Below, in pieces: positions 751 to 36,701 of a DNA stretch of 56,476 nt. Below the pieces are notes generated by a model. That model was given only the letters and a program-made list of their open reading frames with translations, made no database searches and was not told where the DNA came from. Source of the stretch: Chrysochromulina tobinii (lineage: Eukaryota); NCBI GenBank assembly GCA_001275005.1, contig JWZX01002988.1, positions 1 through 56,476 on the forward strand, read 5' to 3'. Position 1 is the stretch's first letter; every line of letters begins with the position of its first letter. The translations under genes were made by a program, and so were the position numbers.

Positions 751-3323
751 ATGAATAACGTTTGGCAGAAGCATTTGACGGGGTGGGGAAAGCGTCACCC
801 AACCGATACCAACCCATTGAAGCCGCCGAGGCCAGTTCAGACGTCATCACCACTCGGGTCATCGTCGGCCAAGGCGGCGGGCAAAATTCCATTGTCTGTC
901 ACCGCACATAGCCCTGTCGTATACGATGCACAGACCGGCCGCCGGCACCTGCCGACGCCGCCGGGCTCGACAGGTGCGCGTACGATGACACCGTCTCGTG
1001 GTGAGTCGGGCTTGACCGCGCAAACGGGCATGGCTATGTCCGTCGTAGGCGATATCAGCACAGCGGGGGCAATTACGCCGCACCAGAAGCAGCGGCAGCA
1101 GCAGCTCGAGGCGCTGCTCTCGCTGCCCTCGCGCTTCGCGCGTGTTGGTGGTGGCTATGAGCGCGTGCCGTACGCTGCGGACGAGCTCCTTAATGCCGCC
1201 GTCGTCGCGGTGACGCGCGAGCGCGGCTACGGCGGCATGACGATCGACGACGACAAGGCCAAGCTGTGCGACGCTCTCGGTTTCGCGATCGCCGAGGCGG
1301 ACGAGCTTCGCGCTGCACTGGGCGAGCAGCCAGTGCTCGAGCAGATGCGCCAGCGCGTCCAACAAGCGCAACTCGACGCGGCGAGGCACGAGGAAGGGAT
1401 CGAGGTGGTGCGACTCGAGGCGACTGCGGCGCGTAAGGCTGCGAGCGAAGTGCAAAGCATCCAGGCCGACCTCGTGCAGGTGCAGCGGCAGCTCGCAAGC
1501 TGGGTGCTAACCGCGGTCGAGCACAGCCGCGCTCAGCGCAAGGCGGCCGACCCCAACTCGTCATCGAAGCCGACGCAGCTGTCCAACACCGCGCCGTCGG
1601 ACTCGGAGCTGCTTGGCGAGACGAGCCCTGGCTCGACCCACGAGGGCCCATTGTCCGTGCAGGCGAGCCCGGGTCCAACGTCCGTGCAGCAGCAGCAGCA
1701 GCAGCAGGCGCAGTACACGGAGAGCCTTCTCGAGTCTCTCGCCTACTTTTATGCGTCGCGCGCGCAGCTGAAGCAGCTGGTGACGGGCATGCGTGCGTGG
1801 CAGGCGTGCGCGGCGCTCCATCGGCGAGATCAGGCGGCGGTGCGCTTTGCCGAGATGCTGATTGTCTCTGATGGCCCTACTGATGATCACCGATGATCAA
1901 TGACTGCTCCCCTCATCAGGTGCGCTTCGCCGAGATGCGCGCGCTCTCGTCGGCGACCATGTCCCTCCAAGCGGCCGCCCAAAATCACGCGCTCGTCGAT
2001 CGTGGCGTGCGTCGCTTTGCGCGCACCCAAGCTCAGCGTGCCTTCCACAATTGGGTTTCGTTTGTGACCAATCGTGCGCTCACGCAGCACACGCAAGTGC
2101 TCGCGGCACAGCACGCGTCCGTGCAGGCGGCGAAACGTGCGGTGGGCAGCTTGAGGGTGAAGCCCCCCCAGGACGACCAGCCCGAGTCGTCGTCTGCTCC
2201 CGAAGAGGAGTTGCCTGTGAATTCACAGTTGAACCACGGCGCGGCTGCAACCTCCTCCGCGCACGTGGCGGCGTGCGCTCCTGCGGCGCGCACACAGCCG
2301 CCCTTTTCGTTCACGGGCAGTGCTCTAGCCTCCTCCCCGAGGGGGGCGAGCTGCTCCACCGCGGGGACCACCGCGGGCATGTCGGAGGATGCCGTTCGAT
2401 GGATGGCAGCGGCGGCGACCGCGGCAGCCGCCCTAGGCGACGTGGTCGCGCAGTTCGGACGTTACACGGGTGGTGACACCGCGCGGTCATCCTCAGATCC
2501 CGACGCGACCCCCGCTCCGCTGAGTGCAACGCAGCGGGCCCAGTTTGATCGCACTTGCGAGCGCGAGATGCCCGAGTGGCTTCGCGCCGCGGCCGATGCC
2601 GCCTCACTCATCAGCGACGCGGCCGAGCGCCTACAGTACGGCTCTTCACACCCCGCTTCACACCCCGCCTCCCGCTCGGGCTCGCGCCCGAGCTCACGTT
2701 GCGCTGCCGAGCCGACGAGCACGCCAAAAGGCCGCATCGCCATCATCAATGAGCGATCCAGTTGGTTCGGCTCCAGCCTCTCTGTCTCTCCCGTGGCGTC
2801 GGGCGACAAGATCTTCTACATGTGTGAACACCTCATGAAGGCCTGCGACAAGATGGGCAACCGGTGCGTGCTCGGCGGTGCCAACATCGCGTGTGGCTTC
2901 CTGCAGCGCGTGCCTGGGCTGTCTGGGGAGCTCTCTGGTGAAGCGGCGGCCGGCTCGGATGCACCGGCAGAGGGCGGCAGCGGCGCGGCTGGCCGCACTG
3001 CCGGCACGTTCGCCGCGCTCGACGCTTCCCACGCGACGGACGCCGGCGCGAGTGGGCAGCAGCACGCGAGCTGGGCTGACTTGGGCGACGGCACCTACCT
3101 GCTCCGATGGGCGGCCGACGCTCCCGGCGTCTTCGATGTCTTCGTCAAGATTGATGGGTTGCATGTGCTTGGCTCTCCCTCGAGGCTAGTGCTCGCGCCG
3201 CCGCTGCCGCCGCCCACGCGCCGAGCACGCCTATCCAGCAATTTAACTTCCGTGGTGGACTCACCTAGCGGCACGAAAGGGTCCGCGGAAACAGCCTCGA
3301 AAGTGGGCGGCACGGACAGCTGA
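751..3323 (+). CDS. Coiled-coil protein with C-terminal filamin/Ig-like repeat (exons 751-1839, 1920-3323; ~830 aa)
   Basis: ORFs 577..1896 and 1893..3323 join in frame via GT-AG intron 1840-1919. The C-terminus WADLGDGTYLLRW..PGVFDVFVKIDGLHVLGSP matches the filamin-repeat pattern. Start ATG 751 is inferred. Confidence 0.7.
1840..1919 (+). other. Spliceosomal intron, 80 nt, phase 0, flanked by 20-nt direct repeat
   Basis: GTGCGC...CCTCATCAG restores the frame. ggtgcgctttgccgagatgc (1839-1858) vs ggtgcgcttcgccgagatgc (1919-1938), 19/20 identical. Confidence 0.85.
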
Positions 3324-3658
3324 GCACGGAGATGAGGAATTGGGTGCGGCCTAGGTGCGGCCGTGGGAGAGACTTTGCGCACGCGCTCTTGTGTGTGCAA
3401 GGCCATGATTTCGAAGGCGAGTGAGGGCAGCGCAGTGTGCGGGCGCACAGACGAGACACGAGGGTGTGTGCAGTGTAGCGGAGATGAACGAAGTGGGCGC
3501 GGTGTGTGAGTCCTGGTCCTGCATGCAAGCTAGGGTGTCCGAAAGGCCGGCGGTAATGCGTAATCGAATAGGCGATGCGTGTGTTCTGTATGTCGTCATA
3601 TTATATTGATATATTGTCGTGTGTGCAAGCAGGGTGCGTCACGAAGAACTTACATGTA

Positions 3659-6495
3659 CTACGAGCACTGGGCTGCCCCGCCTTGCCCTTGGAGATAGAA
3701 GAAGTCGGGGCGCTCGTGACGCGCTGCCTCGAGCAGCTCGGGTGTCTCGAGCACCCGGAGCGCGTGCCAGCACACCCACGCATCGGTCGCGGCGTAGCGC
3801 AGCTGCGCCTCGCTCAGCGTGGGCATCTCCCAGTTGGACATCTGCAACGACTTGGGCTTGTGCATGCGCAGCCCCAGTAGCGCGGCGACGAAGCCGGCGA
3901 CGCCCGTGCAGAGGCAGCCAGCGGCGCGCGCACTTGGGGCCAGCTCGATGAGCGTTGCGCCGACCGAGGCCGCGCCCACGACGGCGCCCGTGGATGCGCC
4001 CACCACGGCGCCGACCGAGGTGGCGACCGGCGCGTCGGCCGATGCCGCCGGCGTCGCGGTCAATCGCGGTGGCGTGCAGCCCAGCCCACCCGCGCGCACA
4101 TCAGACTCGTGGAGCTGCGCTATCTCGCGCCCGATCTCCTGACCGACCAAGGTGAGTGTCGGGTCGCTGAGTAGCTCACGCAGCGGTGACGGCAGCGGCT
4201 GATGACGAACCAGCCGGAAGAGCACCGCGACCTCCGGCGTAGCGAGCTGAACGAGGCAGATTGGGTTGAGATTCTTCTCTCCGGCCCGGAAGGTCGGCTT
4301 CGTCTCGGTGTCGAAGCCGATCACTACACGCCCGTGGAGCTCGCCGCTACGCCGCAGCGCGGCGCACCACGTCGCCGCAGTCATCCTTTCTTCTTCGGAG
4401 CGCCCAGCGGAAGCTTTCGCAGGCGCCCATGCGCTGCCGTCGACCACAATGATCCTGACCGTGTCCTCATCGGGTGGGGGACGAAGGTGAAGGTCCGCGG
4501 GATGCAGCAGGCGGACAGGAGGGAGGGTCGTCGCGAGCGTCTGGAACTGTTCCGACTTGGCTCCTATCAAGGGCCACCGGCGCTTCTCATAGTCCGCCCA
4601 GCACGCCTCGCAGTAGAGCCGGCCGCTGGCCGGGTCGCGATGGCCTCGCCCCGGGTAGCCACACCACAGGCAGAGCCCATCCTCCACCAAGCAGTCGACT
4701 GACACGCCAACGGCCGCCACGTCGTCGACTGGTGCGGCAGGCCGTCCGTCGGCTGGTGCGGCAGGCCGTCCGGCGGCTGGCGCGGCAGGCCGTCCGTCGG
4801 CTGGCGCGGCAGACTTCTCCACCAGTTTCAAAAGGCCGACCCGATGCACGAGCTCGTCCGCGCTGATCGTCCTCGCCGCCGGAGGAGGAGGAGGGGGTGG
4901 GACCAGCCCCTGCATCGACAGCGCGTCTTCGACTCCGACGGCGTGTAAGGATTGCTCACGCCGCAGCCTGGAGGGGAAGACGCCTGCAGGGAAGCACCCC
5001 TGGAGGCAACACCGGGCAATGTGCTCCAGGGCGCTCAAGGCAGCCCGTGCCTGTATCTGCGCGAATGGGTGCAGATGACGCTCGCGCCATGCACTCGACA
5101 ACAGTTCGGCAAAGGGTACCCACGCGACACCTAGCAGGCTCGGGTCGTTCCCCGGATCTGGCGGCCGGCCGAGAGCAGCAGCCACGCGCTCGGCGAGGTC
5201 GGCGTCCTCGGCGTCGAGCTCATGCAAAAAGAGAGCGTACCTGATGAGGAGGCAATCAGCATGCACTCAGCATGCACTCAGCAGCATGGCATGCACCCAG
5301 CAGCAGCAATTCGACACGCAACCGCATACTTGCTCTGGCCCACCCAGACGACGGGCTTCGCGTGCTGCTCGATGCGCGCCCGAGCGCTCGCAGACAGCTG
5401 CCCGCCTGTCTCCTCCGAGCACTCCCTAGCAGCCACGTGGCGAGGGCTCTCGTGGATGGAGTCACGCTTGCCGCCGAGAAAGTTGTACCTCTTCTCCACG
5501 CGGCTGTTATTGGTACGCTCTTCGATCGCGAGTAGGGCATGGGGGTTGCCGCTCTTCTTGTGCCACAGCAGTGCGCCGGCCGCACAAAAGTGCTTCGCAT
5601 CGAGCTCGCGCAGCTGCCCATCTGCCGCTGTGTACGCATCCGGCGTCACCGCCTTACCCTTCCAGGGCCGCTCCGGTGACGACTGCCCTGGAGGCCGCAG
5701 GTCTGGTCGAGTCGGGTGTTTCAGGTGCTGCCACGTCGTCGGATGCGCAAACGCGCACGAAACGTTCGTGCACGTGTCGCCATTGCGGCAGCGCTTGTCG
5801 CCATACTTGCCGCACTTGACCCACTCAACCAGCGAGGTGGTCGGCAAGGCGCTCTGTCGGTTCGATCCGTTTACGTCGACACGGTCGATCGGGCCACGCG
5901 CAGACGATCGCTCGCTCGCCACCTCGCCCACGTAGCCGTCTGTCGGTCCGAAAGCCAGTGGCGCAATCGCGACGGGGCTCCCCCAGTAGGGGTGTGAGCT
6001 AAAGGGCTCTCCGTACGTGGCCGCCTTGTGTCGCGGCTCGCCGCTAGAGCTCCAGCCAACGTTGCGGCCCACAGGGCCATCAGACACGTGCATGGGCACT
6101 GGCAGTCGCTCCACGACAAACACCTGTGGTGCTACCACGTCGTGCCATTCGACAGGATCTCTAGGATCCGGATTGTACTGAATGCGCATGCGGACGTTAT
6201 GCAGCTTACCGAGGACGCGCATTTGGACCTGGCCACTGAGAACACGCTCACTGTCCTCCACCGGTTTCAGCGCCTGCAGCGCTGCCACACCATATGATGG
6301 CAGTGACGCAAGAAACGCAGCATCGATCAAGAAGCCTTGCAGCGCTGTGCCCATGTCGTTGGAAGCAAACACCTTCCGACCATCGATCTCCACACGCGAC
6401 GGCTTGCAGAGGTTCGGCCCGTACAGCATCTCACGAACGTTCCCACGGCCGGGCCGGTGCGGGGGCACGTTGCCAGGAGCCCCCGAGATCGACAT
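3659..6495 (-). CDS. CCCH zinc finger + Nudix hydrolase + DEDDy (WRN/EXD-like) 3'-5' exonuclease fusion (exons 6495-5330, 5240-3659; ~915 aa)
   Basis: C-x5-C-x4-C-x3-H (CRNGDTCTNVSCAFAH); Nudix box GGKRDSIHESPRHVAARECSEETG; CxxC..CxxC; ExoI IGFDTE; SNWE..LSEAQLRYAATDAW. The intron joins the two ORFs in frame (..GQSK|YALF..). The start could instead be ATG 6612. Confidence 0.8.
5241..5329 (-). other. Spliceosomal intron, 89 nt, phase 2
   Basis: GTATGC...GCTGATTGCCTCCTCATCAG with internal TGCATGCTGAG repeats. The downstream exon begins GTACGC, a weak echo of the donor. Confidence 0.85.
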
Positions 6496-6808
6496 TGGCG
6501 GGGAGGGTCCGCCCGCCTCTGCCTCTGAGGGAGCACAAGCACGCACGAGCAAACAAGCACGCAAAAGGAAGCAGAAAAAAGTGTCACAAAGCACTCGCGT
6601 CCTTCTGAGCATTCCAAAATTTCGCGGCCGCGTTAATTGCTCGCGTCGCGCACTTGAAGTCCATAGTTGTTTCAAAGGCGGGGTTCGGCTCAACCGTCAG
6701 TCAAGCCAGGCCAAGAGCGCCGTGTTGGTTAAGTTTCGCCAAAATTCGTTTGCGACATTTGAAGCGTTGGAGGCACAATCCGTGCGCCAGTCTGCGGATA
6801 GCTGCACG

Positions 6809-10344: not shown

Positions 10345-12024
<1,680 letters not shown>

Positions 12025-18740: not shown

Positions 18741-20983
18741 TCAGAATCGTGACAGTCCGGCACTCAGAGGCGCCCCCTGGTCAGGCGGCATTTCGAGCTT
18801 GGAACTCACTGGCGGCGGTCGATGAGCACGAGAGTGGATGAGGAAGTCGGACGGCATGAGGACCGTCGGGTCGACCGATGTGGCCGTGCCGCCGGAGCTC
18901 GAGCTCACGCTGGCACCGTCGGCCAGCGAGTCCGCGACCGAGTCCCGACGGGGCAGCGTGACGGCACGCGTCGAGCATGAGGACGACGCAGCAGCGGCCA
19001 TGGGCGTGGCGCTCACGGATGCGGGTGAGACGGGTGGCGAGGCGTCCTCAAACGGCCGCGGTGTACCGACGACGCGCAGCGCGAGCCGGTTAATGGCAGC
19101 CTCGACGAGTGCGACCGCGAGCGACGCGTTGTGCTGGGCGATCTCGTCGGCGTGCTGCGCCTCGATGTGTACCGCCAGCGCAGCCTCGAGGCCTACAGCG
19201 AAGGATAGACCAAATCGAGTTTGGGCTGTCTGACGTGCGATGGAGGCGAGCTCGGCGGGCGTGTAGTCCTCGAGGAGGAGCGTCTTGGGGAAGCGTCGCA
19301 CTAGCCCCGGGTCCGCGCGCATCAGACCGTCCATTGCATCTCGATAGCCTGCCAGCACCACGCAGAGCGAGGTGCGATTCGACTCGACCTCCGTGAGCAG
19401 GGTCCGGATCGCCTCATCAGAGAATGCGTCGCCGCGCGCCTCGCCGTTGCGACTCGAGCCCGCGAGCGCGTACGCCTCGTCCAGGAAGAGGCAGCCGCCC
19501 AGGGCCGCCTGCACCATCTCCTTGACTTGCGGGCACGTCCACCCAATGTGTGTGCCCTTGAGCTCGAGAGCGTTGCGTTCGACAAAGACAGGGCGCTTGA
19601 GTAGCCCGTAGGCTCGGAGCGCCTTGAAGAGGAGCCGAGCTGCCGTCGTCTTGCCGGCGCCGGGGTTGCCGGTGAGCACGAGGTTGAGGCACGCCTCGAG
19701 GAGCCTCGGGTCGCCACCGCGCTCGACGAATTCCACCTTGGCGCGCAGCATCAAAATGGGGGCAATTAGCATGCAATCGGGGGGCAGCCAGCATGCAATC
19801 GGAGGCAATCAGCTCGTCACCTTGGCGCGCAGCTCGGCGAGGTACCGCTTGAGCGGTGCCATGCCGATCAAGCCAGCAACCTCCGCGTCCACCGCGGCCC
19901 GCTCGGCCAGCAGTGACTGCAACCCGTGGGCCTGCAGCCCCAGGTCCGCGGCGGAGAGGATGAGGGGCGCCGAGAGCAGCCGTGGGAGCGCGAGCCGCCC
20001 GTTGCGGTGCGTGACCGCACGCTGCACGAGCTCCGAGGCGAGGTGGGCGTTCCGCATCGCGAGCACCTGTGGGGAGTGAGAACGTCGTGGTGAGCACATG
20101 CATGCCTCGGGGGCTCTTGGGTTGTCCGCATCGCGAGTACATCACGCGACCACGTGGCGCTGAGGGCGATCTGCAGCTCGCAGGGGCCGAGGCCGTCGGC
20201 GAGGGCGTAGCCGCGCTCGACGAGCCGGCGCTGCGCGATCTCGGCGAGCTCCGCCGGCGCGTAGTTGGGCAGCTGGAGCCACACGGGCTCCACCTTGCGA
20301 AAGTGGCTCACCGCGCCGTGGAGTGCTTCGATTCGATCCGTCGGGCCGAGGAAGATGAAGCAGTGGTCGGGGTAGTTGGCGAGGACGGCATCGACTTTGC
20401 CGCGCATGCTCTCGATCTTGTCGAGCCCATCGATGATCACGCACGACACGTCGCGCCGCACGTCGAGCACCAGGCCCTCGAGCGTCGTGCGTGTGGAGAC
20501 CATCCCGCGCGCGACGCCGAGTGCGCGCAGCAGCTCGGTCAGCGTCTCGGCGGCGAGCTTCTTGCCAACACCGAGGTTGCCCGAGATGAGCACGTTACGC
20601 ACGCACGGCGGCTCGCCCAGCGCTGTGCGCGCGAGGCAGTCACGCCGCTGGCTAGCGCAGTACTCCTTGATCGGCACGAGGCCGATCAACCTCTCGAGCG
20701 CCATGTCGACGCGGGCGAGCTTGGCCGGGTCGGCGGCCTTGCAAAGGCGGGCGATCTGGCGATACTCAGGTGTGCGCAGCCGACTGGCGATCACGGTCGA
20801 CTCGTGCTCTCGCCGTGCAGCCAGCAAGCTGTTCGCTGCCGCCTTCCGGCGGACTGCCAGGCCCTCCTGTCGCACTGTGAAGCCGCGCCAGGCGGCCTGC
20901 GCTTTGGTCGCGGCGACCAAGGGCGTCGAATGCAAGGTTGTTGAAAATTCCGAACGGGCCCGCTTGAACGGGCGCTCCTCCAT
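18741..20983 (-). CDS. CbbX/CfxQ/SpoVK-family tandem AAA+ ATPase with N-terminal IQ-like motif (exons 20983-20141, 20066-19821, 19736-18741; ~694 aa)
   Basis: AATKAQAAWRG IQ-like motif. Module 1: LIGLVPIK..GNLGVGKKL. Module 2: LIGMAPLK..GNPGAGKTT, FLDEAY, VLAGY, DPGLVRRF, DYTPAEL. Two introns join three ORFs in frame. Confidence 0.85.
19737..19820 (-). other. Spliceosomal intron, 84 nt, phase 0, flanked by perfect 16-nt direct repeat
   Basis: GCTGCGCGCCAAG|GTG occurs at both junctions (+ strand 19734-19749 and 19818-19833). An in-frame TGA inside means splicing is required. Confidence 0.85.
20067..20140 (-). other. Spliceosomal intron, 74 nt, phase 0, flanked by 16-nt direct repeat
   Basis: The intron starts GTACTCGCGATGCGGA and the next exon starts GTGCTCGCGATGCGGA (15/16). 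It ends CTCCCCACAG. Confidence 0.85.
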
Positions 20984-21358: not shown

Positions 21359-22763
21359 TCACAGAAAAGTTGAGAGCAACTCATACAGCTCGTGAGGCGT
21401 CTCGTTGCCGTATCCGTACTTCGCTCGGCGCAGCAGCTGGTGCGTGGCGCACGAATGCGGGATGCACCGGAAGGTGCAGAACTCGCCTGTGGACTGGCGA
21501 CACTTGTACGTGTCGGCCGTCGTTCGCGCCGGTAAGGTCTCGTTGCATGCAATGGGGCCGCCGCGAGTCGTGAGCCGTTTCGTCATGGCGTACTTGCGCC
21601 GCACCTGACTCGAACAGTGGCAAACAGTGGCAACCCATATCAATCCGTGGCAGTCAGTGGCAGTCAGTGGCAGTCAGAGGCACTCCAAGGCACTCCGTCT
21701 AACTGGGCAGCACTCTTCACAGTACTCTTCACAGCACCTGTCTCGACCACAAGCGCTCTTGCTCGAAGGTGTCCTGGCCGAAGCTGTTAGGAAAAAGCCC
21801 CTCGTAAGGCTCGAACTCCCACGTGACCGCCGCGTTGCGCTCGGGCCCCGTGCGGATCTGGTGCCACCACCCTTCGGGGATGAAAAGCGCGTCGCCGCCG
21901 CGCAGATGCGCCACCATGCCGCCCTCGAGCTGCGCGAACATGGGCCACTTGTCGAGATCGACGCGCTCCGGGTTGACAGGCGATTCGCCATATCGGACGT
22001 GATAGTCCATGTACATCTTGTGCGACTGCGAGGGCGGGAACAAGTAGATCGACTTGGTGCCAAAGACCTGCAGCATCAGATTATCTTTTGTGTCAATGTG
22101 AAGTTCGCTCGTCGTGTTGCCCGAGCTCATCCACAGGCGCGTCTCATGCACCGACTCGTGCATCTCGGGGCACTGGAGCACCGCAGGCATCTCCACGTGT
22201 TTGCCAAGCTGCACGCCCGGGTCAGTCAGTGGCGCGATCAGGTACATTTTATCCTTGAACTCCGGTTTGAGGTAGTCGCGCAGGAAAGTGCAAAAATTGA
22301 TCGGCTCACGCGGACCGCGCGTGCTGTTCACAACCACCTTGCTCATTTCCACGTTCGCCAGCCATGGGCCGCCGCCGTGAGCGTCGTCGAGGTGGCACCG
22401 CCGTGATAGGAAGTCATCGGTCCACGCGACTCCACCAGTCGCGGCCGCGGCCGCACCAGCGAGCACGACGGGCTCAGCCGCAGCAACATGCTTCTCGTAG
22501 AAGACACGCGGGTCCGACATCGTCACGCGGGGCACATTGGGCATCGATTTCTGCTGCGACCCCATCCGCTCAAGGTGGCCCTTGCGACGGTGGCATTTTC
22601 GCGCCGTGAACGTCTCATCCGACGGCCAGCGCTCGCACTTGTGCACGTGGCACTCACGTTGGGTCTTGGCCGGCCGAAAGGATGGAAGCACGTCGCGGTA
22701 GCGCGTCTGGTCGCCGATCACAGGTGATAGCAAGAAGGGTAAGCAAAACACCCTGTGCAGCAT
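21359..22763 (-). CDS. Secretory-pathway JmjC/cupin-like (JMJD5/JMJD8/FIH-type) 2OG-Fe(II) oxygenase (exons 22763-21738, 21604-21359; ~423 aa)
   Basis: LWMSSG..SELHIDTKDNLMLQVFGTK..FPP; L.GGDALFIPEGWWHQI. Hydrophobic N-terminus after ATG 22763. Confidence 0.85.
21605..21737 (-). other. Spliceosomal intron, 133 nt, phase 0, flanked by 13-nt direct repeat
   Basis: TCGAGACAG|GTGC at the donor vs TCGAGTCAG|GTGC at the acceptor (12/13). The interior has CTGACTGCCA x3 and GAGTGCCT x2. Confidence 0.8.
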
Positions 22764-23023: not shown

Positions 23024-24067
23024 CTAGCTACGAGCTTGCCTCGATGGCTTGCCCAGCGCATCAAGGAGCGCATTCGCCTGGTCGGCCGGGCTCAGCCTGG
23101 ACGCCGAGTGGCTCAGCCCCATGCGCACGTTGGCCTCACTGAGCACATTGGGGACGACCGGTAGGAGGTCCTCGAGCTCGAGCTCACGTGCGATGAGGCG
23201 TACAAGCTTCATCAGGGGCGGAGCCTGTTCGGCGGCGTCTGCCCCCTCAAACGGATTGGGGGGTGGAGGGTAGATTGCGGGATAGAGTGCCCGAGAGTGC
23301 CCGAGATTGCCCGAGATTGCGGGAGGATAGAGTGCCCGAGACGCCAAGCGCAAGCGAGCCATCGGTGACGGGGCGACGGGCGATGACGTCGGCTCCGATT
23401 CCTCGGAGTGGTCTTCAGAGGACTCCGACTCGGATGACTCCGACGATGACGCCCACGACGGCGCTCTCGGCGGCGCTGGCGCATACGAAGGCGATGAAGG
23501 AGGCTCGGGCGGTGGCGGCGGCGGTGGTGCTCGAGGCGACGCTCCTGCAGGTGGCGACGGCTCTGAGTGGTCCCTAACCATATTTGGGTGGTCCCCGGGA
23601 AGGTTGAGACGATGGCCCATAGAGCCTCTCGTGAGACTGCTCACGTCCACGCGGCGCACCGCGGCGTACGATTCGTACGATTCGGTGGCTCCGATGACTC
23701 CGACGATTTCCAAGGCAGGTCCCGCCGTGGGTCTTCCCATCGTCGGCTTGCTCCGCACAGGCCCACGCGCTTTGTCTAATTCAGGTAATCCCATCGGAGC
23801 TGAAAGATGGCCATATGCCGCGAGCCTATCCATCTCCTCGGAGGCGAGTCGCTTGCGCTCGGACGCACGGCGCCGGTCCTCATCGCGCTGCCACAGCGCA
23901 GAACTTTTAGAGATCGGAGCTGATAGACAGCCAAACGCCGCGAGCCGCGCCCTCTCCTTATCGGCAAGTCGTTTGCGCTCGGCCGCACGCCGCTGTTCAT
24001 CCCTAACTTGCCACAGCGGCTTTGTGATAGGCTTCATGGCTGCGCGCATCTCCTCGACAGAGGGCAT
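23024..24067 (-). CDS. Hypothetical protein with duplicated ~39-aa N-terminal unit and Pro/Ser/Glu-rich linker
   Basis: 347-aa ORF; LWQ.RDE.RR.A.ERKRLA.....RLAA.G.LSAP occurs twice; divergent from the gene at 24357. Confidence 0.6.
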   Translation of the reverse strand: MPSVEEMRAAMKPITKPLWQVRDEQRRAAERKRLADKERARLAAFGCLSAPISKSSALWQRDEDRRRASERKRLASEEMDRLAAYGHLSAPMGLPELDKARGPVRSKPTMGRPTAGPALEIVGVIGATESYESYAAVRRVDVSSLTRGSMGHRLNLPGDHPNMVRDHSEPSPPAGASPRAPPPPPPPEPPSSPSYAPAPPRAPSWASSSESSESESSEDHSEESEPTSSPVAPSPMARLRLASRALYPPAISGNLGHSRALYPAIYPPPPNPFEGADAAEQAPPLMKLVRLIARELELEDLLPVVPNVLSEANVRMGLSHSASRLSPADQANALLDALGKPSRQARS

Positions 24068-28400: not shown

Positions 28401-31400
28401 CCAACGCGCCGGCTGCGTACGCCTTGCCTTCAGCGTCGCCGTCCCGCACGAGCGCCACGAGCGGTGCGATCCCGCCCGCGGCCCGGATCGCGGCCTTGTT
28501 CGCATCGTCATCTGCCGCCAGAATCTGCAACGCGCCGGCTGCGTTCGCCTTGCCTTCAGCGTCGCCGTCGCGCACGAGCGTCACGAGCGCAACGATACCG
28601 CCCGCGGCCCGGATCGCGGCCTTGTTCACATCGTCATCTGCCGCCAGACCCCACAACGCGCTGGCTGCGTACGCCTTTCCTTTAGCGTCGCCGTCGCGCA
28701 TGAGCGACACGAGCTCGACATGGATGCTGCATCGATGCTGCAACGCGGCGGCTGCCCTCAAGTACATTTGCACGGTGGCGCCGGCAGAAAGGCCGCATTC
28801 CATGAGAGTGAAGCCCTCGTTAAGTGGCTTGCCGGCAAAGGTCAGAAAGAATTTGTCGCATGGAACGCCCGCCTTGCTTGCTGCTGCCGCTCGCAGGGCG
28901 CTGACGTTGTCAGTCGAGCGCATCGCATCCACGGTGAGAGTGCAGCGGTGTCGCACAAAGAGTTGGAAGGGCTGGCTTGAAGGGGCAGGTTGAGTAGGCG
29001 TCGGCATCACGTTGCCGAGGAGCCGGGCATGTGATGGTAAATCATCACCAAAGAGCGACCCCACCTTTGCAGGCTTGCTTGGTGTGATTGCATGCGGCAG
29101 CGTGGCGTCCTCCGCGGGCTCATTGTCGTCGACGGCGGCGGCAGCTGCGGACTTCTTCGAGGGGGGGCGGCGCGCCCGCCAGCCAGCGCCCTTCGCTCGA
29201 GAGAGCTGGGCGGCGAGCAGCGTGTCATCGGCAGTGGGATCGGCTTTGCTGGTCGGCACGGCTGCTGCGCCGCCAGCGGTCATCGAGGCGGCCGTGCCAT
29301 CACCGCTGCTTGACGGCTCATCCTCGGCGGCAGCGGCCTTTGGCCTCCGGGAGGGCGGCGCAGCACTGGGCATCATGAAGTTGAGATTGCCCAGCTTCCC
29401 TTTTAAGGCGGTGACTCTCTTTTTGGGCGCGTCTTCCTCGTCCTCGTTTGCGTCGTTAGCGTCGAGCGCGGGCGCGGGCTTCGGGAGCACGGGCGGCGGC
29501 ACGGGCGGTGGTGCGGACTGTGGCGCGGGCTTAGGGGGCGCGGGCGCGGCCACCGGCTTATCCTCAAACTCGCCGTCATCCTCGTCAACGCTCGGTGGCC
29601 GCGCCCGTCGGTCCTTCATCAAGCCCGCCATCGCCGCCAACGGCCCACCGGCCGCAGCGCCCACAGGCAGCTTTGGCTTTGGCGTTGGCGCCGGCGCCTC
29701 GTCCTCGTCGTCGCCGCCGGACAAGGCGCCCTTGGCTGCGGCTTGTGGCGCGGGCAGCGGTGCGGGCGGTGGCGCAGGCGCGGCGGCCTGCTTGAGTGCC
29801 GCCGCTGGCTTCGCAGGGCCGAACAGTCCGCCATCGCCGCCGTCTTCATCGTCGTCGCCGAACAGGCCGCCGCCGTCGGACATGGGCTTTGTAGCCGACG
29901 GCGTGGCGGGCAGCTTGGGAGGCGCGGCGGGAAGCTTCTTGGGCGCACCGCCAAAGAGCCCACCGTCATCGTCGTCGTCGTCGCCAAAGAGGCCGCCGCC
30001 GCCGCCCTTTTTGGCGGCAGGCTTGGGAAGAGGCGGCGCGGGCGGCGCCTTGGCCGCCGCTTTGGCCGCCGCTTTGGCGGCGGCCTTACCCGCCGAGGCG
30101 CCCAAAATGCCGCCATCATCGGCCACCGGCGTCTCCTCTTCCTCGTCCCAAACTCCAAAGAGAGAGGCATAGTCCACCTTCGTAGGCGGCCCCGAGGGCG
30201 CGGCGGCCGCGGCGGCAGTGGGCCCGGAGCCTGATTTGGAGCCAGGGGAGGCGGCGGCGGCGCCATACTCGCCAAAGAGCCCCCCTGCAAAGAGTGAGTC
30301 CCGCTTGCTACTCGCTCTTTGCAGGGGGTGAGTCAAGTGCGCCGGCAGGAGGTGGAGGCCACCCGCGCCGCGGCCGCCAGAGAAGCCGAAGGGGTCATCA
30401 TCCTCGTCCTCATCCTCGTCGTCGTCCTTGCATTGAGTGTCGGCCGACAGTTTCTCCAACAGGGCGACTGCGTGCGCCTTGGCATCAGCGTCAGAGCTCC
30501 CGTCGCGCACAAGCGCCACAAGCGGCTCGATGCCACGCGCCGCCCGGATCGCCGCCAGGTTGGCAGCACCGCCGTGCGCCAGATTCCACAACGCGGCGGT
30601 TGCGTTCACCTTGCCTTCAGCGTCGCCGTTGCGCACGAGCGCCACTAGCGGTTCGATGCCGCCCGTCGTCGCGATCGTCGCCACGTTGGCAGAGTGGGCG
30701 GCTGCCAGCCTCCACAACGCGCCGGCTGCCTTTGCCTTGCATTCAGTGTCGCCGTCACGGGCAAGCACCACGAGCGCTCCAATTACCACCTCCTGGTTGG
30801 CAGCGTTCCCATCCGCTAGACTCACCAACGCGCCGGCTGCACTCGACTTGCCTTGAGCGTCGCCGTCGCGCACGAGCGCCGCGAGCACTTCGATGCCGCC
30901 CGCTGCTGTGATCCCCGCTTTGTTGGCAGCGTCGAAGGCCGCCAGACTCCACAACGCTGTGGCTGCCTTCGCCTTGCCTTCAGCGTCGCCGCCGCGAGTG
31001 AGCGCTACGAGCGCCTCGACGCCGCCCGCCGCCGCAATCGCCTTCTTGTTGGCAGTGTTGCGCGCTAACTTCCACAACGCCTCTGCGGCTGCAGCCTGCT
31101 CCTCAGCGGTGCCATTTCCCAGCATCGCCACCAGCGGCGGGACGGCTCCGGCCGCGGCGAGTGCCTCACGCATGGGGTCTGCCACTTCCCCTGGCGGTGC
31201 GTTGGCGAGAGTGGCGATGCCACTCGCTGCGCGCGTCCGCACACCGATGGCGCGGGCTTGGAGCAACGCCACCAGCGCCACCGTGTCCGCGTCGGCCACT
31301 GCGCCCACCGCCGCGGCGGCGCTCAGAGGAAGAGCAACGGGCGGCGGTGGCTCGGCTGTCGGTATGATCGGCCACCAGCTCCGCCGGGCGGCGGGGGCGG

Positions 31401-31422
31401 AGTTCCGGGATGAACTCGTCAT
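25453..31422 (-). CDS. Mosaic ARM-repeat / FAM21-like / ubiquitin-like / WWE / PARP-catalytic protein (1989 aa)
   Basis: Three ARM blocks (AAGALWNLA..NKAAIRAAGGIEPLV); GGLFGDDDDDDGGLFG repeats; UBL (FLTFAGKPLNEGFTLMECGLSAGATVQM); WWE (WMWE..WQLFD..YDVDL..QKNVRTGFLR); PARP (LWHGT..NGFDR..YGVGSYFS..YS..RVLVG..SIFVL..AYTEFLL). Confidence 0.85.
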   Translation of the reverse strand: MTSSSRNSAPAARRSWWPIIPTAEPPPPVALPLSAAAAVGAVADADTVALVALLQARAIGVRTRAASGIATLANAPPGEVADPMREALAAAGAVPPLVAMLGNGTAEEQAAAAEALWKLARNTANKKAIAAAGGVEALVALTRGGDAEGKAKAATALWSLAAFDAANKAGITAAGGIEVLAALVRDGDAQGKSSAAGALVSLADGNAANQEVVIGALVVLARDGDTECKAKAAGALWRLAAAHSANVATIATTGGIEPLVALVRNGDAEGKVNATAALWNLAHGGAANLAAIRAARGIEPLVALVRDGSSDADAKAHAVALLEKLSADTQCKDDDEDEDEDDDPFGFSGGRGAGGLHLLPAHLTHPLQRASSKRDSLFAGGLFGEYGAAAASPGSKSGSGPTAAAAAAPSGPPTKVDYASLFGVWDEEEETPVADDGGILGASAGKAAAKAAAKAAAKAPPAPPLPKPAAKKGGGGGLFGDDDDDDGGLFGGAPKKLPAAPPKLPATPSATKPMSDGGGLFGDDDEDGGDGGLFGPAKPAAALKQAAAPAPPPAPLPAPQAAAKGALSGGDDEDEAPAPTPKPKLPVGAAAGGPLAAMAGLMKDRRARPPSVDEDDGEFEDKPVAAPAPPKPAPQSAPPPVPPPVLPKPAPALDANDANEDEEDAPKKRVTALKGKLGNLNFMMPSAAPPSRRPKAAAAEDEPSSSGDGTAASMTAGGAAAVPTSKADPTADDTLLAAQLSRAKGAGWRARRPPSKKSAAAAAVDDNEPAEDATLPHAITPSKPAKVGSLFGDDLPSHARLLGNVMPTPTQPAPSSQPFQLFVRHRCTLTVDAMRSTDNVSALRAAAASKAGVPCDKFFLTFAGKPLNEGFTLMECGLSAGATVQMYLRAAAALQHRCSIHVELVSLMRDGDAKGKAYAASALWGLAADDDVNKAAIRAAGGIVALVTLVRDGDAEGKANAAGALQILAADDDANKAAIRAAGGIAPLVALVRDGDAEGKAYAAGALGNLAADDDANKAAIRAAGGIEALVTLVREGDADGKASAAGALQNLAADDEANKAAIRAADGIEPLVTLVRDGDAEGKANAAGALWNLAADDDANKAAIRAAGGIEALVTLMREGDADGKASAAGALWGLSAGDDANKAAIRASGGIKALYTLSRDGDAAGKAKAAGALQNLVFVNDEDDNDNVVDYDSFFGASAGKAAAKAPPAPPLPKPAAKKGGGGGLFGDDDVDDGGLFGSAPKKLPTPPLPKPAAKKGGGGGLFGDDDDDDGGLFGSAPKKLPTPPLPKPAAKKGGGGGLFGDDDDDDGGLFGSAPKKLPAAPPKPPAAPPATKPMPPQPAPLSPVYGSNSTLHVVSTLAVVNTLAAAGYGTSTSSAPPPVPMGWPVDQPPMGSWPVDQPPMGWPVDQPPMGSWPVDQPPMGWPLDQPPMGWAVDPPMGYALADGLRTRHSTPAAVSTLAVVNTPVAAGSPRSPTVTSNLKAPSPSAAAVERAVADADPAALVALFQACAIGARTPVASGIAILADAPPDQSTDPMRGALAAAGALPPLVAMLRNGTAEEQAAAAEALWKLARNAAIKGAIVAAGALVPLAALVRDGDAQGKAKAATALWSLAAGDAANKAAIVAAGALVPLAALVRDGDALGKAKAASALQILAADDDTNKAETRPAHVWMWEDGAVGSGAWQLFDTASEETFRNQEASGVLRFRIEIRGQAYDVDLRLCTQKNVRTGFLRNLKRHALTDVDKDLPSLSHFPGSYGQAPPYWAALLPASQLPGSASTQGIGHAPYVLGEILSTPKGGMFTPKPMPIERHVALCDFVRSMMPPQLRSRLLTISHIRSEARFNLYQAARDALISRIGRAQLNEAWLWHGTSRDTLESIMANGFDRNMNERGMYGVGSYFSNQLKYSLNEEYAKPDNEGSQWVLLVRVLVGQSCVGKQGMRQPAKKPGGGAVLYESMVDSLQTPSIFVLSTGSDNHAYTEFLLRLEEEDV
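27102..27275 (-). repeat. 27/30-nt coding minisatellite (MG[S]WPVDQPP) x6-7
   Basis: Tandem ggctgatccacgggcca units within the PARP ORF. Confidence 0.9.
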
Positions 31423-31650
31423 AAACGAGGTTCTCCGCTTCGGAGCTAATAAACTGGCTATTCTAGTCGTGCTAGGAACTTTTGAAATGAATTTCCCATG
31501 GTGACCATTGCGTCGCCATTTTAAATTGAATTCACGTCGCTTTCTTCATACACTCTTCATACCGCGGGTAGCGAGTGCAGCGAACCACGACCCGTCCAGC
31601 CGTCCCTGCTGGCGCCTGGCGCCCACGACCCGACCCGACACTGGCATCCT

Positions 31651-33139
31651 ATGTCCGAGACTTCTCGCGTCGTCTGTGTCGGTGAACTTGCACGATCCGA
31701 GTTGGACGGCAAAGATCACCCGGACGACGAGCATGACTCACCTGCAGGCTCTGCACATGGCGCATGGCTGCGGAGTGCCGACCGTCACTTTCCTTCTGCT
31801 CGAGCATGGGACAATGCCTTGAGTGCGTCACTTTGCACGGCACTGGAGTCAGATGCTCGAATGATCAACGCCTCTCCCCAGTTGCCATCGACATTCTGGG
31901 TCGACGCAGCCAACATGGCGACACCTAGTTGTTCGCTCGAGCGCTTCGCATGCAACGTCCTCCAATTCCACACAACAGGCGGTGGCGTGCATGAATCAAC
32001 CGGCACGGTTACACCCGAAGATGGGTCCGCGATTCGCGGGGTGGAGTGGTGGGTCCAAGTACGCAGCAGCGAATCACCCAAGCCGTCCATCAACCTTCAT
32101 TTTGATGCCGATGAGGCCACGAAGAGACAGACTTGCGAGCATCTGCCGCCCTTTTTGTCGACGGTCACGTACCTAGGCTCGCACGGAGGGCCGACGGTCT
32201 TGCTTCCTGCCGTTGGTGATGCCCACGGGCGCGCCCTGCCCCCGATAAGCGACCATGGCGCGTTTATCAGCCACCCGGTGAGGCTGCAGCAGACTCAATC
32301 TCGGGCTCAATCTCGGGCCGCCAGGGCCTTCCAAATTCGGTCCCGAGCTCTCGCATGCACTCTCGCTGACGCTAGTGTGTTGCCGTGCGACGCGACGCGC
32401 GCGCGCGCGTTCGCAGATCGCCGGAAGGCACCTTGCCTTCGACGGCCGCCTCCTCCATGGCGCTCTGCACGACCTCGCCCTCCCCTCTCCCTTGCCGTAC
32501 ATTCGAGTGTCGGTACTGGTCAACATTTGGCATCGCCATCGCCCACTCGGTGTGTTTCGTCTACCAGCAGGCTTTGCCGCAGGGCTGTCCAATTCGCCTG
32601 ATGGGCTGTCCAATTCGCCTGATGGGCTGTCCAATTCGCCTGATGGGCTGTCCAATTCGCCTGATGGGCTGTCCAATTCGCCTGATGGGCTGTCCAATTC
32701 GCCTGATGGGCTGTCCAATTCGCCTGATGCGCTCGCCCCCCTCATCGGAGCGTCCCACGACGAGACGATCGTCACATGGGCACCCGTCCTTGCGGTCAGT
32801 GCCGGGCGCACCGAAGGCGATGGACATGGCGATGGAGCTTCCGAGGCTGACTGGATGTCGTGCCGTGTCGGCTATCTGCCTCTGACCCCAGCCATCGGGG
32901 CGGTGCCGGGCTGGCGGGAGCTCGCGACGAAACACGGGCTCGACATCGGCTTTCCTTTCCGCCACTTGCCAGTCCGCGTGCGCCATCTGCAGCACTCTAC
33001 AGGTATCCAGCGAAGCAGCCATATTCCGTTCCGGTACATGCGGGAGGTAGAGCTGGAGTGCGATCTGTGGTCGGACGGAGAGAGCAGCCAGCGCAAGGAC
33101 TGGTGGGCCATCGCCGTCTTTTTGGCGGAGCTCGGGTAA
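31651..33139 (+). CDS. Putative 2OG-Fe(II) oxygenase (exons 31651-32277, 32417-33139; ~449 aa)
   Basis: EWWVQVR..NLHFDADE..LSTVTYL..GGPT..GRHLAFDGRLLHG..RVSVLVNIW, giving the HxD...H...R pattern. The intron restores the frame. Confidence 0.7.
32278..32416 (+). other. Spliceosomal intron, 139 nt, phase 0, no flanking repeat
   Basis: GTGAGG...GCTGAC (branch-like)...TTCGCAG; joins HP|IAGRHLAFDG in frame. Confidence 0.8.
32582..32728 (+). repeat. Perfect 21-nt coding minisatellite x7 (GLSNSPD)
   Basis: gggctgtccaattcgcctgat repeated 7 times without mismatch. Confidence 0.97.
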
Positions 33140-33196
33140 GACGACGGACGACGCAGGGTATGAATATTGTTGGATTTATGTTCGCGAACCGACTGA

Positions 33197-33432
33197 TTGA
33201 CCCAAAGGGGTAGGGGGAGATTATTCCTTCTGGATTCACACACTCTACCTCCCCATCACCTGCTGATTTTGAACACTCAGTGACGTGATTCTTTGACCCA
33301 AAGGCATGCCCAAAGCCCGGGGGCAAAGGGGCGGAGGGGGCCGGGAGGCGTATTCCTTCTGGATTCACACACTCGATCCCCACATGGATCCCCACCACCT
33401 GATATTTTGAACTCAGTGCATGACTCAGTGAC
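33197..33432. repeat. Intergenic two-copy structured duplication
   Basis: ttgacccaaagg ... tattccttctggattcacacactc (33222-33245 = 33351-33374) ... cacctg..attttgaa..ctcagtg appears twice in the same order. Confidence 0.85.
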
Positions 33433-33909
33433 CCCCGCCCCCGCGTACGAAAGGGCTAACCGCCTTACCGGGTACCGTACGCCTACCATGACGCCTACGC
33501 CTCAATGCTACGCCTCACTACGCGCCGGGTACGCTCCCAGTCACGGCGGAGCGGCATGCGGAGCGGGCGCGGGGGCGGGGCATGGCGCCTTGGCGGGGGC
33601 GGGGCCGGGGGCGACGGACGACGAGCGCGCGCGCCCCACGTCTAGCAGTCGTAGTCTAGTCGAGTCTCTAGAATATTTTCGCATTTCGGCTGATTACATG
33701 TTTTTAACACTGCCCATCCACATATTACACGTTACACCTGTTTGGGAATTGAAGGTACTACCAAAGCCGTATAAACGGCGCCCCCCGGACCTCTTCGCGA
33801 CGGCCGCCCACGTCGCACCGTTCCCAAACGAAACGGCTGCGAGACTCGCCGGCCGAGACGCGAGAGACCACCGACCGATTTCGAACGCGTGAAACATCAT
33901 GCGCCCTCT

Positions 33910-36701
33910 TCACCATGGCAACCACATTGGTGACGCGGGGGGACTTTCTTCGTGGACAGGACTAACAAGCAGCACGAGCGAGACGCAGGAGACGCTCAGC
34001 CAGATCATGAGCGCGCACCGGATGATGTGCCAGTCGAGGCTCTCGAAGTAGATCTGCACCCGGCTGGGCGGCGGCATGGTCTGCAGATCCGAGAAGGCGG
34101 CGGTGTTGCGCAAACGCGCTTCGAAGCTGGGCACCACCTCCTTGCGCGACGGCTCAAGCTTCTTGAAATAGCACTTGAGCTCGTCGAGCGAGATGGAATT
34201 CGAGTTATCAGTGTCGATCAGGCGGAAGAGCTCGTCGCCCTCCATCTTGAACTCCGGCCACAGCTCGCACAGCTCGGGATGTTGTGTGATGGCGCTGGTG
34301 AGCTCCTCCTTGGTCACCGTTTGGTCACCGTCGACATCGGCGAGTTTGAAGAGGGTCTCGGCGAGCCGTTCGGTCGAGAAGAGGTCGTCGGTCCTGGACG
34401 TATGTTCGTCCAAGTAGTTTCGGTCACCAGAGAGGAGGCAGCAAGTGCGAGTGGGAGTGGCCGGCTGGGACTGTCCCAGCCGAGGCCTGCCGCCCCCTGC
34501 CATCAACTGCTCCTGCCGATACGACGCGCCGCCCGGCCGCATGCGTTTGTCGAGCTCGTTTCGCGAAATCATCTGATATTTGACCACGAGACCTTGGCAT
34601 GAGCACATGAGCACCTCCTCCGCCTCCCCTCGGGTGCCCGCTGTGAGGATCGCCTTCGAAAAGTAGCGCTCGGCCGACGCAGACGGCGTACCGCCGGGAC
34701 TGGCGGAGGCAGTGGGGACGCTGGTCGCGGGTTCGATGAGGCCGATCGGGTCGAACCCGCGCCCAGCAATGCCTCCACCGGGTAAGCGTGACGGATCACT
34801 GGAAGCGCGGCGAGGAGAAGTGGACGATCGCGGCGACAGCGACGGCTGAGAGCGCGACGAGACGGCATATGCGATGCGCCTGTCCCCATCCTCGAGGCAG
34901 CCCGAGACGGCGGTAGACCCATCCGAGAACAGACGCACCTGCGAGGCAATCAGAGGTCATCAGAGGCAATCAGAGCTCATCAGAGGCACTCAGGGCTCAT
35001 CAGAGGTCATCAGACGCACCTGCGAGGCAATCAGAGGTCATCATCAGACGCACCTGCGAGGCAATCAGAGGTCATCTGAGGTCATCAGAGGGTCATCAGC
35101 GGGTCATCAGAGGGTCATCAGAGGTCATCAGACGTACCTCAGAGGTCATCAGAGGTCATCAGACGTACCTCCGAGGCAGCTTTGCCGCGGTTGTCCTCGG
35201 CCTTCATGTCTGAGTAGCTCGTGTCGCACATGATGATATCCACACGCGGCCCGGTGCCCGCGGCCGCCGCCGCCGACTGGATCACCGTTGGGCAGTTGCC
35301 GTGCGGAGTGTGGCCGACGACGAGCCGGCAGATGCCGTTGGCGGCGAGCTTGGCCTCGAGGGCCGGCGGCAGCGGCGCGGGCATGCCGCTGTCGTCGAGG
35401 TGGCGGCCGAGTACGACAGAGGGCAGAGTATTGGGCACACAGTAATCCATGAGCCCATGACCTCCGCGCCGATTTTCCTCATACGCGCTCGCATAGCTCG
35501 TCTGATCTCGCCTGATCTCCCACTCCGGGCGCGCCTCCCACTCCGCGATCTGCTCGGTCTTCCACCGATGCAACTGGCGCACCCACATGCGCACGTCTTC
35601 GTACTGCCGGTTCGGTGGCACGAAGCCGAAGCATTCCTTGTGGCCGTCGCGGTAGTTGCCCTGGAGGCCGCCATGGACGAACAGGGTGTCCCCGAGGACG
35701 ACAGCGAGCTCCCCGAGACGCACCTGATGTGGGAGGCAATCACGTGTCATCATGTGTCATCATCAGCCGGATGGACGAGAGTGAGCTCCCCGAGACGCAC
35801 CAGCTCGCGCATCACGCCGCCTCGGGCGACGCTGTCGACGAAAGAGCTCACGACGGCGCTTTCGCTCACCTGGAGGGGTTGGGTGGGTGTGAATTGGAGG
35901 GGTTGGGTGGGTGGGTAAGGGCGAACACACGGCTGTGAATGGCGTCTCTCGGCATTCTCCCACGTGCGTGTTTGGCACGCCCAGTACCAGGCGCACCTTT
36001 GACACGTCGATCTTGTGGATGACGGACAACTCGGCACGTCGCCGCTCAAACTCGCCGTCGGCGCCCATGGTCTCCTTGAGCATCCAGCGCACCCGTGCCG
36101 CGGGCGTGTTCGCCACGCGGAGCGCCGCCTCGTCCACCTCCTCCGGCTGGATCCCGCGCGATTTGGCGATCGTCGCGCGTAGGAAGCCCTCCGGGCTCAC
36201 CCTCTTCGCCGGCGCTACCCAATACGGCCCGGGCACGCCGTGCAGCTCGGCGAGCTGCGAGGGCGCGAGCTCGGAGGTGAAGCGCATCTTGTTGATGTCG
36301 CGGTTACCCAGGATGATGTGCACGGCGGACGGGTACTTTTTCTTGAGCCGCACCAGTGTTGTCGCCACGCGGATCGAACCACCGACCTTGCCGCCCTTGT
36401 CCACCGAGTCGCCGCCGAAGACAAAGTGCCAGCCCGGCTGCAGCTTTATGTCGGCGCTGCCGTCTTCGTGGAGTGACAGCAGTTCAAGCACTGGGCTCAT
36501 TTCGATGCACTTGATAAAATACTCCCAGTTTCCCTCGACGTCGGTCATGAAGGCGACGTTCGGCATGTTCGTCATCAGAACTTTCTTGCGGTGATGACAA
36601 ACGTAGTAGGCGAGCGCGAGCAAGAACCCGAAGACCACGCTGCACACGCACGCCACTGGGTCGTTCCCTGCGGAGGCAACGAACGCCTCCACACCGGGCA
36701 T
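33910..36701 (-). CDS. Membrane-anchored calcineurin-like metallophosphoesterase (GNRD variant) with EF-hand pair (exons 36701-35997, 35869-35801, 35723-35169, 34938-33910; ~785 aa)
   Basis: FMTDVEGN, FGGDSVDKG, ILGNRDINK, LFVHGG, VVGHTPHG, MCDTSYSD. EF-hands DVDGDQTVTKEE and DTDNSNSISLDE. Hydrophobic segments at both ends. Three introns join four ORFs in frame. Confidence 0.8.
34939..35168 (-). other. Spliceosomal intron, 230 nt, phase 0, 19-nt direct repeat, interior made of ~10-nt repeats
   Basis: TGCCTCGGAG|GTACGTCTG vs TGCCTCGCAG|GTGCGTCTG (17/19). The interior is (TGATGACCTC)n with extra copies of both junctions. Confidence 0.85.
35724..35800 (-). other. Spliceosomal intron, 77 nt, phase 0, 29-nt direct repeat
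   Basis: GGTGCGTCTCGGGGAGCTCACTCTCGTCC vs GGTGCGTCTCGGGGAGCTCGCTGTCGTCC (27/29). It ends TGATTGCCTCCCACATCAG. Confidence 0.87.
35870..35996 (-). other. Spliceosomal intron, 127 nt, phase 0
   Basis: AAG|GTGCGC...CCCCTCCAG|GTGAGC; duplicated C/A-rich tract CACCCACCCAACCCCTCCA; frame restored. Confidence 0.8.

Follow-up and report, generated by a model that had tools for sequence, protein, structure and literature searches.

Several otherwise unrelated introns in one stretch of the genome of the freshwater haptophyte alga Chrysochromulina tobinii finish in nearly the same way, and the question raised by this locus is how a shared 3' end comes to stand in front of unrelated exons. The stretch, here called the window, comprises positions 1 to 56,476 of contig JWZX01002988.1 (56,476 nucleotides) and is gene-dense eukaryotic sequence of about 63% GC, whose methionine aminopeptidase 2 (10390–12021) falls in a 90%-identity cluster with C. 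tobinii KOO25341.1 and a C. parva protein. An earlier, sequence-only reading had proposed that a common template is added between duplicated exon ends, and had seen in it a minimal intron-generating element. As described below, the template is real, with an identity of 72 nt between unrelated loci, but the single element is not.

The module and its introns in the window

Every string quoted in the sequence-only reading is present where it had been placed. The intron ends are TGACTGCTCCCCTCATCAG at 1919 (+ strand) and, on the − strand, CTGATTGCCTCCTCATCAG at 5241, GTGATTGCCTCCCACATCAG at 35724 and CTGATTGCCTCGCAG at 34939; CTGATTGCCTCC and TGCATGCT lie inside 19737–19820, and TGCATG occurs in 5241–5329 and in 20067–20140. 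The last of these had been taken for the same module but belongs to a second type of filler (type B, below). The module consists of CTGATTGCCTCCCTCATCAG behind tandem 10–11-nt units, and we call it type A filler. Exact TGATTGCCTC is found seven times in the window against 0.13 expected for 56 kb, and all seven matches lie inside introns that cover about 2.6% of the window; four of the seven share one expanded intron, giving four independent introns in all. The excess is weaker when one mismatch is allowed (11 matches against 3.82 expected from shuffled window sequence, with 1 of 100 shuffles reaching 11).

Table 1. Introns and host genes considered in the window. Paired coordinates give the two copies of each duplication.
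Feature	Coordinates	Strand	Length (nt)	Content	Duplication
Intron	1840–1919	+	80	GT-AG; type A	First 19 nt (1840–1858) copy exon start 1920–1938, 1 mismatch
Probable intron	5241–5329	−	89	GT-AG; ends CTGATTGCCTCCTCATCAG; TGAGTGCATGC units	3 nt exact (GTATGC/GTACGC)
Probable intron	19737–19820	−	84	Type A units	16 nt exact (19818–19833 / 19734–19749), spanning AG/GT
Probable intron	20067–20140	−	74	Type B (GCATGCATGTGCTCACCAC...CCCCACAG)	16 nt, 1 mismatch (20125–20140 / 20051–20066)
Predicted intron	21605–21737	−	133	CTGACTGCCA units (type A-like); frame open across junction	4 nt
Intron	34939–35168	−	230	Array of CTGATGACCT in which acceptor plus exon start occurs three times	19 nt across junction, 2 mismatches (35160–35178 / 34930–34948)
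Intron	35724–35800	−	77	Type A	28 nt, 2 mismatches, first 18 exact (35773–35800 / 35696–35723)
Intron	35870–35996	−	127	No module; internal control in the same RNA contigs as 35724–35800	No clear duplication
Host gene	18744–20983	−		Double AAA+ (SpoVK-like) ATPase; introns 19737 and 20067	
Host gene	33910–36701	−		Calcineurin-like phosphoesterase with EF-hands; introns 34939, 35724 and 35870	

The architecture of exon copy, tandem 10–11-nt units and acceptor is observed directly, and RNA contigs document the splicing of two module introns and, indirectly, of a third. For intron 1840, one contig of run X11 (depth 3.5) has a joint 1838>1919, with GT..AG at a cut of +1, and contigs of run X13 end at 1847 and begin at 1919. 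In two further RNA records (X11 record 11 and X14 record 27), 288 window bases are skipped with 84 between, and the 204 bases removed equal 77 + 127, so that introns 35724 and 35870 are both spliced. As intron 35870 is spliced in the same gene without the module, splicing does not depend on the module, and the view that the shared template goes beyond splice consensus is upheld. The indirect case is intron 34939, where contigs of runs X14 and X12 break off at 34940 and 35167. At this intron the public C. tobinii model KOO25338.1 passes from KAASE to VRLFSD, and the model uses all three junctions of the gene (34939, 35724 and 35870); other RNA contigs begin at 35047, inside the intron, and unspliced RNA or DNA must therefore also be present.

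The remaining introns are argued from sequence and, for two of them, from orthologous proteins. Read-through of 5241–5329 meets stops in all three frames, and we infer that it is spliced; no joint for it occurs among the RNA contigs. Introns 19737 and 20067 are both probable; the RNA contigs do not reach either of them, which, like the missing joint at 5241, speaks neither for nor against splicing. The first would bring an in-frame stop if read through, and the spacing of 100 residues that its removal gives is found in 15 of 18 homologous proteins, with 101 in two and the anchor missing in one; across the site of the second, orthologues run directly from ATWARD into VLAMRNAH. The predicted intron at 21605, built from the same 10-nt units, had escaped the sequence-only reading.

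Two of the earlier claims hold in part. Duplicated exon ends are clear at 1840, 19737, 20067, 34939 and 35724, whereas 5241 offers three exact bases only. Likewise, the CATCAG end is absent from 34939 and 19737, where the 3' end of the filler is cut off and the acceptor AG comes from the duplicated exon. In 19737–19820 the duplication supplies both splice sites, and in 34939–35168 it again gives donor and acceptor, with module and exon copy meeting through a common TGCCTC. In 1840–1919 and 35724–35800, one splice site is carried in and the other is provided by the duplication.

Several further observations concern repeats in the window. The exon starts that follow introns 34939 and 35724 (34927–34938 and 35712–35723, − strand) both read GTGCGTCT, with 8 nt in common; at least 7 nt are shared by 0.6% of random pairs. 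At 35489–35525, CTGATCTCGCCTGATCTC lies opposite to the gene strand inside an RNA-covered exon (protein EWEARPEWEIRRDQ), and is possibly an antisense unit retained in frame. About eight tandem 21-nt units (GGGCTGTCCAATTCGCCTGAT) at 32582–32750 (+) are followed by CCCCCCTCATCGG, resembling a decayed type A acceptor, and may be an in-frame insert. A predicted 412-nt intron at 37711–38122 (+) holds two copies of CCCTAATTAGGATGAGCCCCCCC, and introns in metagenome loci L002 and L063 also end in CCCTAATTAG. ATCTCGGGC-type units occur in a predicted intron at 32278–32416 (+) and a low-complexity stretch at 23250–23340, perhaps as a further filler family. Finally, an intergenic repeat at 33194–33587 (summed DNA depth 767–3315, against about 80 nearby) represents another repeat family.

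Duplications and fillers in metagenome copies

Judged from sequencing runs and pattern matches, the module is present in high copy across the genome. In DNA run X1 (1230 records over 5.9 kb), summed depth reaches 41,927 and 58,660 at intron 34939 against about 80 on its flanks, an excess that roughly indicates hundreds of similar contigs and is not a copy count. The C. tobinii genome is 59 Mb, with about one intron per gene (PMC4580454); six type A introns per 56 kb, extrapolated over that length, would amount to thousands. A pattern scan of metagenomes returned at least 131 loci from an estimated 1800 stretches. Since the pattern required the module and a following GT, the figures below describe this selected set, in which 139 distinct acceptors were reduced to 120 non-redundant ones with enough flank and to 106 with a module-free downstream exon. 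Identities of 33–72 nt between unrelated loci were seen.

For 50 of these 106 acceptors, the first bases of the intron repeat those of the following exon at a score of at least 10, against 0.1% of shuffled pairs; at a score of at least 6 the numbers are 76 of 106 and 10.7%. No significant long duplication is present in the other 56. The 50 significant copies are 11–55 nt long, with no fixed length, and contain 56 mismatches in 1259 bases, 20 of them being perfect. In duplication-flanked introns the copied exon start supplies the GT donor. The base before the duplication is G in 34 of 44 cases, and 49 of the 57 duplications found begin at the first base after AG. GT comes next at 165 of 220 module ends and GC at 23, and exact duplications may also start with CT, AA or CC (L128, L060, L085 and L111). 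Tandem copies of acceptor plus exon start, as in intron 34939, are common (L032, L044 and L119).

The fillers are arrays of 10-nt units (85 spacings) and 11-nt units (25) that end in CTGATTGCCTCCCTCATCAG. Where the start of the filler is in register (26 of 50), it falls at 10 of 11 unit phases, so that there is no fixed 5' end, and 5 of these 26 joints have microhomology of at least 3 nt, against 1.8% in the null. What the copies have in common is their 3' 20–72 nt; the 5' parts derive from the target, and there is no end-to-end similarity. The median filler is 57 nt and the median duplication 24.5 nt, and the two lengths are anticorrelated (rho −0.60) beyond what the detection floor produces (0 of 2000 simulations at floors of 46 and 50, and 1 of 2000 at a floor of 60). 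Two further ideas were rejected. Donor drift towards GTA is seen in introns 20067 and 34939, though mismatches at +3 occur in just 2 of the 50 copies; as for targeting to existing junctions, the 5–6 cases in 50 are, by a rough estimate, compatible with random insertion and selection. The arrays of L049, L113, L009 and L105 give sub-threshold C/D-box snoRNA matches, likely from the TGATGA and CTGA in their units, and we give these matches no weight.

Three types of filler leave the same footprint: type A, type B (the GCATGCAAGTGCTCACCAC type) and telomeric CCCTAA repeats. Type B is accompanied by the duplication in 9 of 33 cases and in none of the shuffles, A–B chimeric fillers exist among the metagenome loci, and at L101 and L107 two different fillers occupy the same nucleotide. 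The telomeric type is known from L057 (− strand; introns at about 190–279 and 3–40), in which CCCTAA arrays end in CC(C/T)TCATCAG before GT, like type A, one of them with an 18-nt duplication. These are 2 of 228 C[CT]TCATCAG ends, both in one gene, and none is among the window introns listed. A telomere-plus-CCAG pattern in viral contigs matched eight loci, seven of which we read as chance. The small contig L145 (about 905–1016) resembles a circular single-stranded DNA virus, with a genomovirus-like Rep by sequence reading; an intron predicted in this Rep closes with CCCTAA repeats plus CCAG, and within it lies a 15-nt near-copy of the beginning of the following exon.

The introns are thus not copies of one discrete element: their 5' ends and the lengths of their duplications vary, and a terminal repeat is absent. 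It is here that the minimal element of the sequence-only reading fails, given the variable unit phases and duplications, the exon-derived 3' end of two window introns, the three fillers with one footprint, and a closest filler match that tends to lie in the same locus.

Local donors, intron gain and mechanism

Neighbouring introns tend to resemble one another. When the 21 bases upstream of the core were compared, same-locus acceptors were more alike than acceptors of different loci (9.82 against 7.58 of 21 bases; 116 pairs, 0 of 2000 permutations). A stricter test, which leaves out same-record pairs closer than 130 nt and any pair whose exon starts are similar, gave 10.63 against 7.56 +/- 0.68 for 104 pairs in 31 loci (0 of 3000, highest null 10.61). 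A pair matching at 17 or more of 21 bases occurs in 9 of the 31 loci, compared with 3% of between-locus pairs, and is lacking in 22; the four type A ends of the window itself have little in common (3–11 of 21). Two introns of L071 with different duplications share 42 identical nt, with a private core found in no other locus, and other variants private to one locus are a 24-nt stretch in L037 (type B) and the telomeric filler, present twice in L057. Private variants common to neighbouring introns point to local donors, although the similarity of neighbours could instead come from later gene conversion.

Some copies are inverted. One of them, an in-frame part of an L084 exon, carries the variant of the neighbouring introns, and its next 7 bases match the neighbour's exon start; in L087 (255–440) an inverted block of three module-plus-duplication units is nested in a sense intron. 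Copying from DNA or pre-mRNA accounts for both more readily than copying from an excised lariat. Across similar neighbour pairs, shared exon-start bases show no overall enrichment (mean 2.43 against 2.19), and 3' microhomology with the donor's exon start was rejected on these figures.

The introns were likely gained in this lineage. Proteins predicted from metagenome assemblies read into the introns and stop there, and a continuous frame on a long contig can therefore be taken as absence of the intron. AAA orthologues on contigs of 26, 14, 11, 9, 7 and 66 kb (representatives 62–80% identical) cross both sites uninterrupted, as phosphoesterase homologues (46–50% identity, 8–17-kb contigs) cross all three, and four window introns are absent from orthologous genes on long contigs. 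These orthologues are distant (46–80% identity), and loss in them may account for the difference instead. Cluster members from close strains (15 listed for each cluster, of 21–141) yielded no empty allele, and three strain pairs kept all introns and differed only in array length.

On balance, we think it probable that the introns arise when repair of a staggered break copies the 3' end of a nearby intron, and that selection retains the products that splice cleanly. A staggered DNA break in an exon would be repaired with duplication of 4–55 bases of the gene, and the gap would be filled with sequence copied from the 3' end of an intron already present, in many cases a neighbour. For this, the broken 3' end may anneal briefly to that intron, copy 20–100 bases and be rejoined, perhaps by polymerase-theta-type end joining. 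Selection would keep those cases in which the first copy opens with GT or GC in a donor-like context and AG stands at the second copy, so that the spliced mRNA is exactly the original one; the seemingly constant end of the filler would follow from such selection. Units may later expand by slippage, with total length held near 50–110 nt, and each new intron would itself become a donor, giving copy-of-copy lineages of filler (A, B and telomeric) and no master element. A bolder version, which we offer tentatively as the less likely proposition, is an element-free chain reaction in which break repair clones the acceptor ends of neighbours, the products serve as new donors, telomerase repeats seed fillers and thousands of introns result. 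If true, this would be a genome-scale route of intron gain without a transposon, missed by introner screens that look for end-to-end similarity.

Of the alternatives, the one that survives best, though we consider it unlikely, is a retro-mechanism in which 5'-truncated copies of the 3' ends of intron RNA (or of a SINE-like RNA) enter at nicks, through a LINE-type reverse transcriptase or through reverse splicing, with variable duplications. Target-primed reverse transcription leaves duplications of varying length and copies that are shortened to varying degrees at the 5' side, with microhomology, while their 3' end is mostly constant. All of these features, including the mostly constant AG end, are observed here, and the 49 of 57 duplications that begin directly after AG fit as well; nearly all copies are in sense, and the gene's own transcript could be the local donor. 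The copies, however, end in CATCAG with no A-rich tail, introns 19737 and 34939 lack the 3' end of the filler, and inverted local copies occur, one of which matches exon bases beyond AG. Nor was a source found: ARAGORN reports no tRNA in the window, and Rfam gives no match at gathering score (just sub-threshold miRNA, sRNA and C/D-box matches, and none to U2 or U6). No partner element was detected in viral or prokaryote collections, in which the module pattern gave six viral matches, none with arrays or duplications and all read as chance, three further patterns gave none in viral contigs, and a 20-mer gave none in prokaryote genomes.

Renewal in place seems to us improbable. It would have local duplication or abortive mRNA-templated repair overwrite the 5' part of an old intron and gene conversion homogenize the 3' ends, with few new positions. 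Such renewal would suit the common acceptor-plus-exon-start tandem copies, the arrays that vary between strains, the lack of presence/absence polymorphism among close strains, and the duplications that often start right behind an acceptor already in place (L085 and L037; CATCAG precedes 5 of 50). It does not suit the four window positions that are uninterrupted in long-contig orthologues; the different fillers at one nucleotide in L101 and L107 need an outside template, and the first spread of the family is left unexplained.

We give little credence to the idea that telomerase heals staggered breaks and adds CTGATG and TTAGGG repeats on the template strand, creating branch point and acceptor, with type A descending from such inserts. 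The two CCCTAA introns of L057 share the type A end, one with its 18-nt duplication, and the strand geometry is as expected; TTAGGG is the telomere repeat of haptophytes (PMC3622300), and inserts flanked by telomerase-RNA sequence are described at breaks in rodents (PMC2246262). But telomeric ends are rare (2 of 228) and confined to one gene, CCCTAAC also simply matches a branch-point consensus, and a word search of the accessible text of PMC8287931 gives no haptophyte telomerase RNA.

Still less plausible is a DNA-transposon introner (MITE) with inverted ends CTGATGA/TCATCAG, even though CTGATGA, with which the unit starts, and the terminal TCATCAG are reverse complements and introners are present in marine Chrysochromulina genomes (PMC9860276). 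Duplication length and 5' end are not fixed, and there is no stable fold (z −0.44 to +1.73 in 9 of 9 sequences); the hairpin was dismissed on this absence of excess folding. Least credible of all is the view that each intron has independently been selected for a strong branch point, a pyrimidine tract and YAG, and that the motif is nothing more. CTGAT does fit the branch-point consensus CTRAY about 17 nt before a YAG, but long identities between unrelated loci, the splicing of module-free introns and the duplications are not explained by such selection.

Relation to known systems

The module introns form a real, high-copy class flanked by duplications, which works in an introner-like way but lies outside the introners as these are defined. 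A 2025 survey has C. tobinii at 0 introner families in its available text (PMC12130899), which suggests that such surveys may miss a self-copying class of introns. The accessible parts of PMC13685798, PMC8469720, PMC11782384 and PMC10996645 contain no duplication-plus-filler architecture in haptophytes, and no description of the C. tobinii family was found in the literature searched, which covers few subscription journals. The source of new intron sequence is an old open question, and here the donor is traceable, often to the next intron in the gene. The alga is in culture, its genome is small, and a sister strain and abundant populations in lakes are available, so that repair-templated gain should be testable against retro-templated gain in existing data.

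Introners (PMC9860276; PMC12130899; Roy 2020, bioRxiv 10.1101/2020.10.14.339549, Polarella classes 4/5 and 6/8/10) share with these introns a repeated intron sequence, a carried acceptor, a donor from the target duplication and restoration of the mRNA. An Emiliania family of five is entered in a supplement row as "co-opt 5', carry 3'", with 10-bp terminal direct repeats. In the introners described in these sources, however, TSDs are short and fixed per family (3–9 bp), often with inverted ends, whereas the C. tobinii introns have duplications of 11–55 nt and no fixed 5' end, and differ also in their tandem-unit interior, several fillers and local donors. In the Chrysochromulina introner family that is figured, the TSD is 4 bp and the splice-site logic is reversed. 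For PMC9860276 the comparison covers places 1–32 of 214 in the supplement, and marine families for which TSDs are called there may overlap the C. tobinii family.

The tandem genomic duplication model (PMC3443670) also takes splice sites from a duplicated AGGT, as in 19737 and 34939, but the interior of the C. tobinii introns is foreign filler and not duplicated exon. Interstitial telomeric insertions (Nergadze 2007, PMC2246262) resemble L057 in that the repaired break contains telomeric repeats and in some cases a duplicated target; unlike these insertions, the rare L057 fillers end in an acceptor and are predicted to splice. Templated insertions and partial tandem duplications of alternative end joining (PMC7407515) share the duplication with nearby filler, direct or inverted, and the microhomology, and rice insertions copied from within 200 bp of the break are cited there. 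The account given in the available text of that paper does not treat templated insertion as a self-propagating source of introns, which our reading of C. tobinii does.

The preferred account, repair of staggered breaks from local donors, has a counterpart in break-repair gain in Daphnia pulex (Li 2014, PMC4202315). There too the end of the adjacent exon recurs as a direct repeat on the opposite side of the new intron, internal direct repeats are present, and the gain is attributed to staggered breaks. The exon-terminal repeat at the opposite intron end and a nearby filler in either orientation, by which such gain is recognized, are both found here. In Daphnia, a source was identified for only a few of 90 new introns, and the repeats are 4–12 bp (PMC4202315); in C. 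tobinii the duplications are longer, and the filler can be traced to other high-copy introns.
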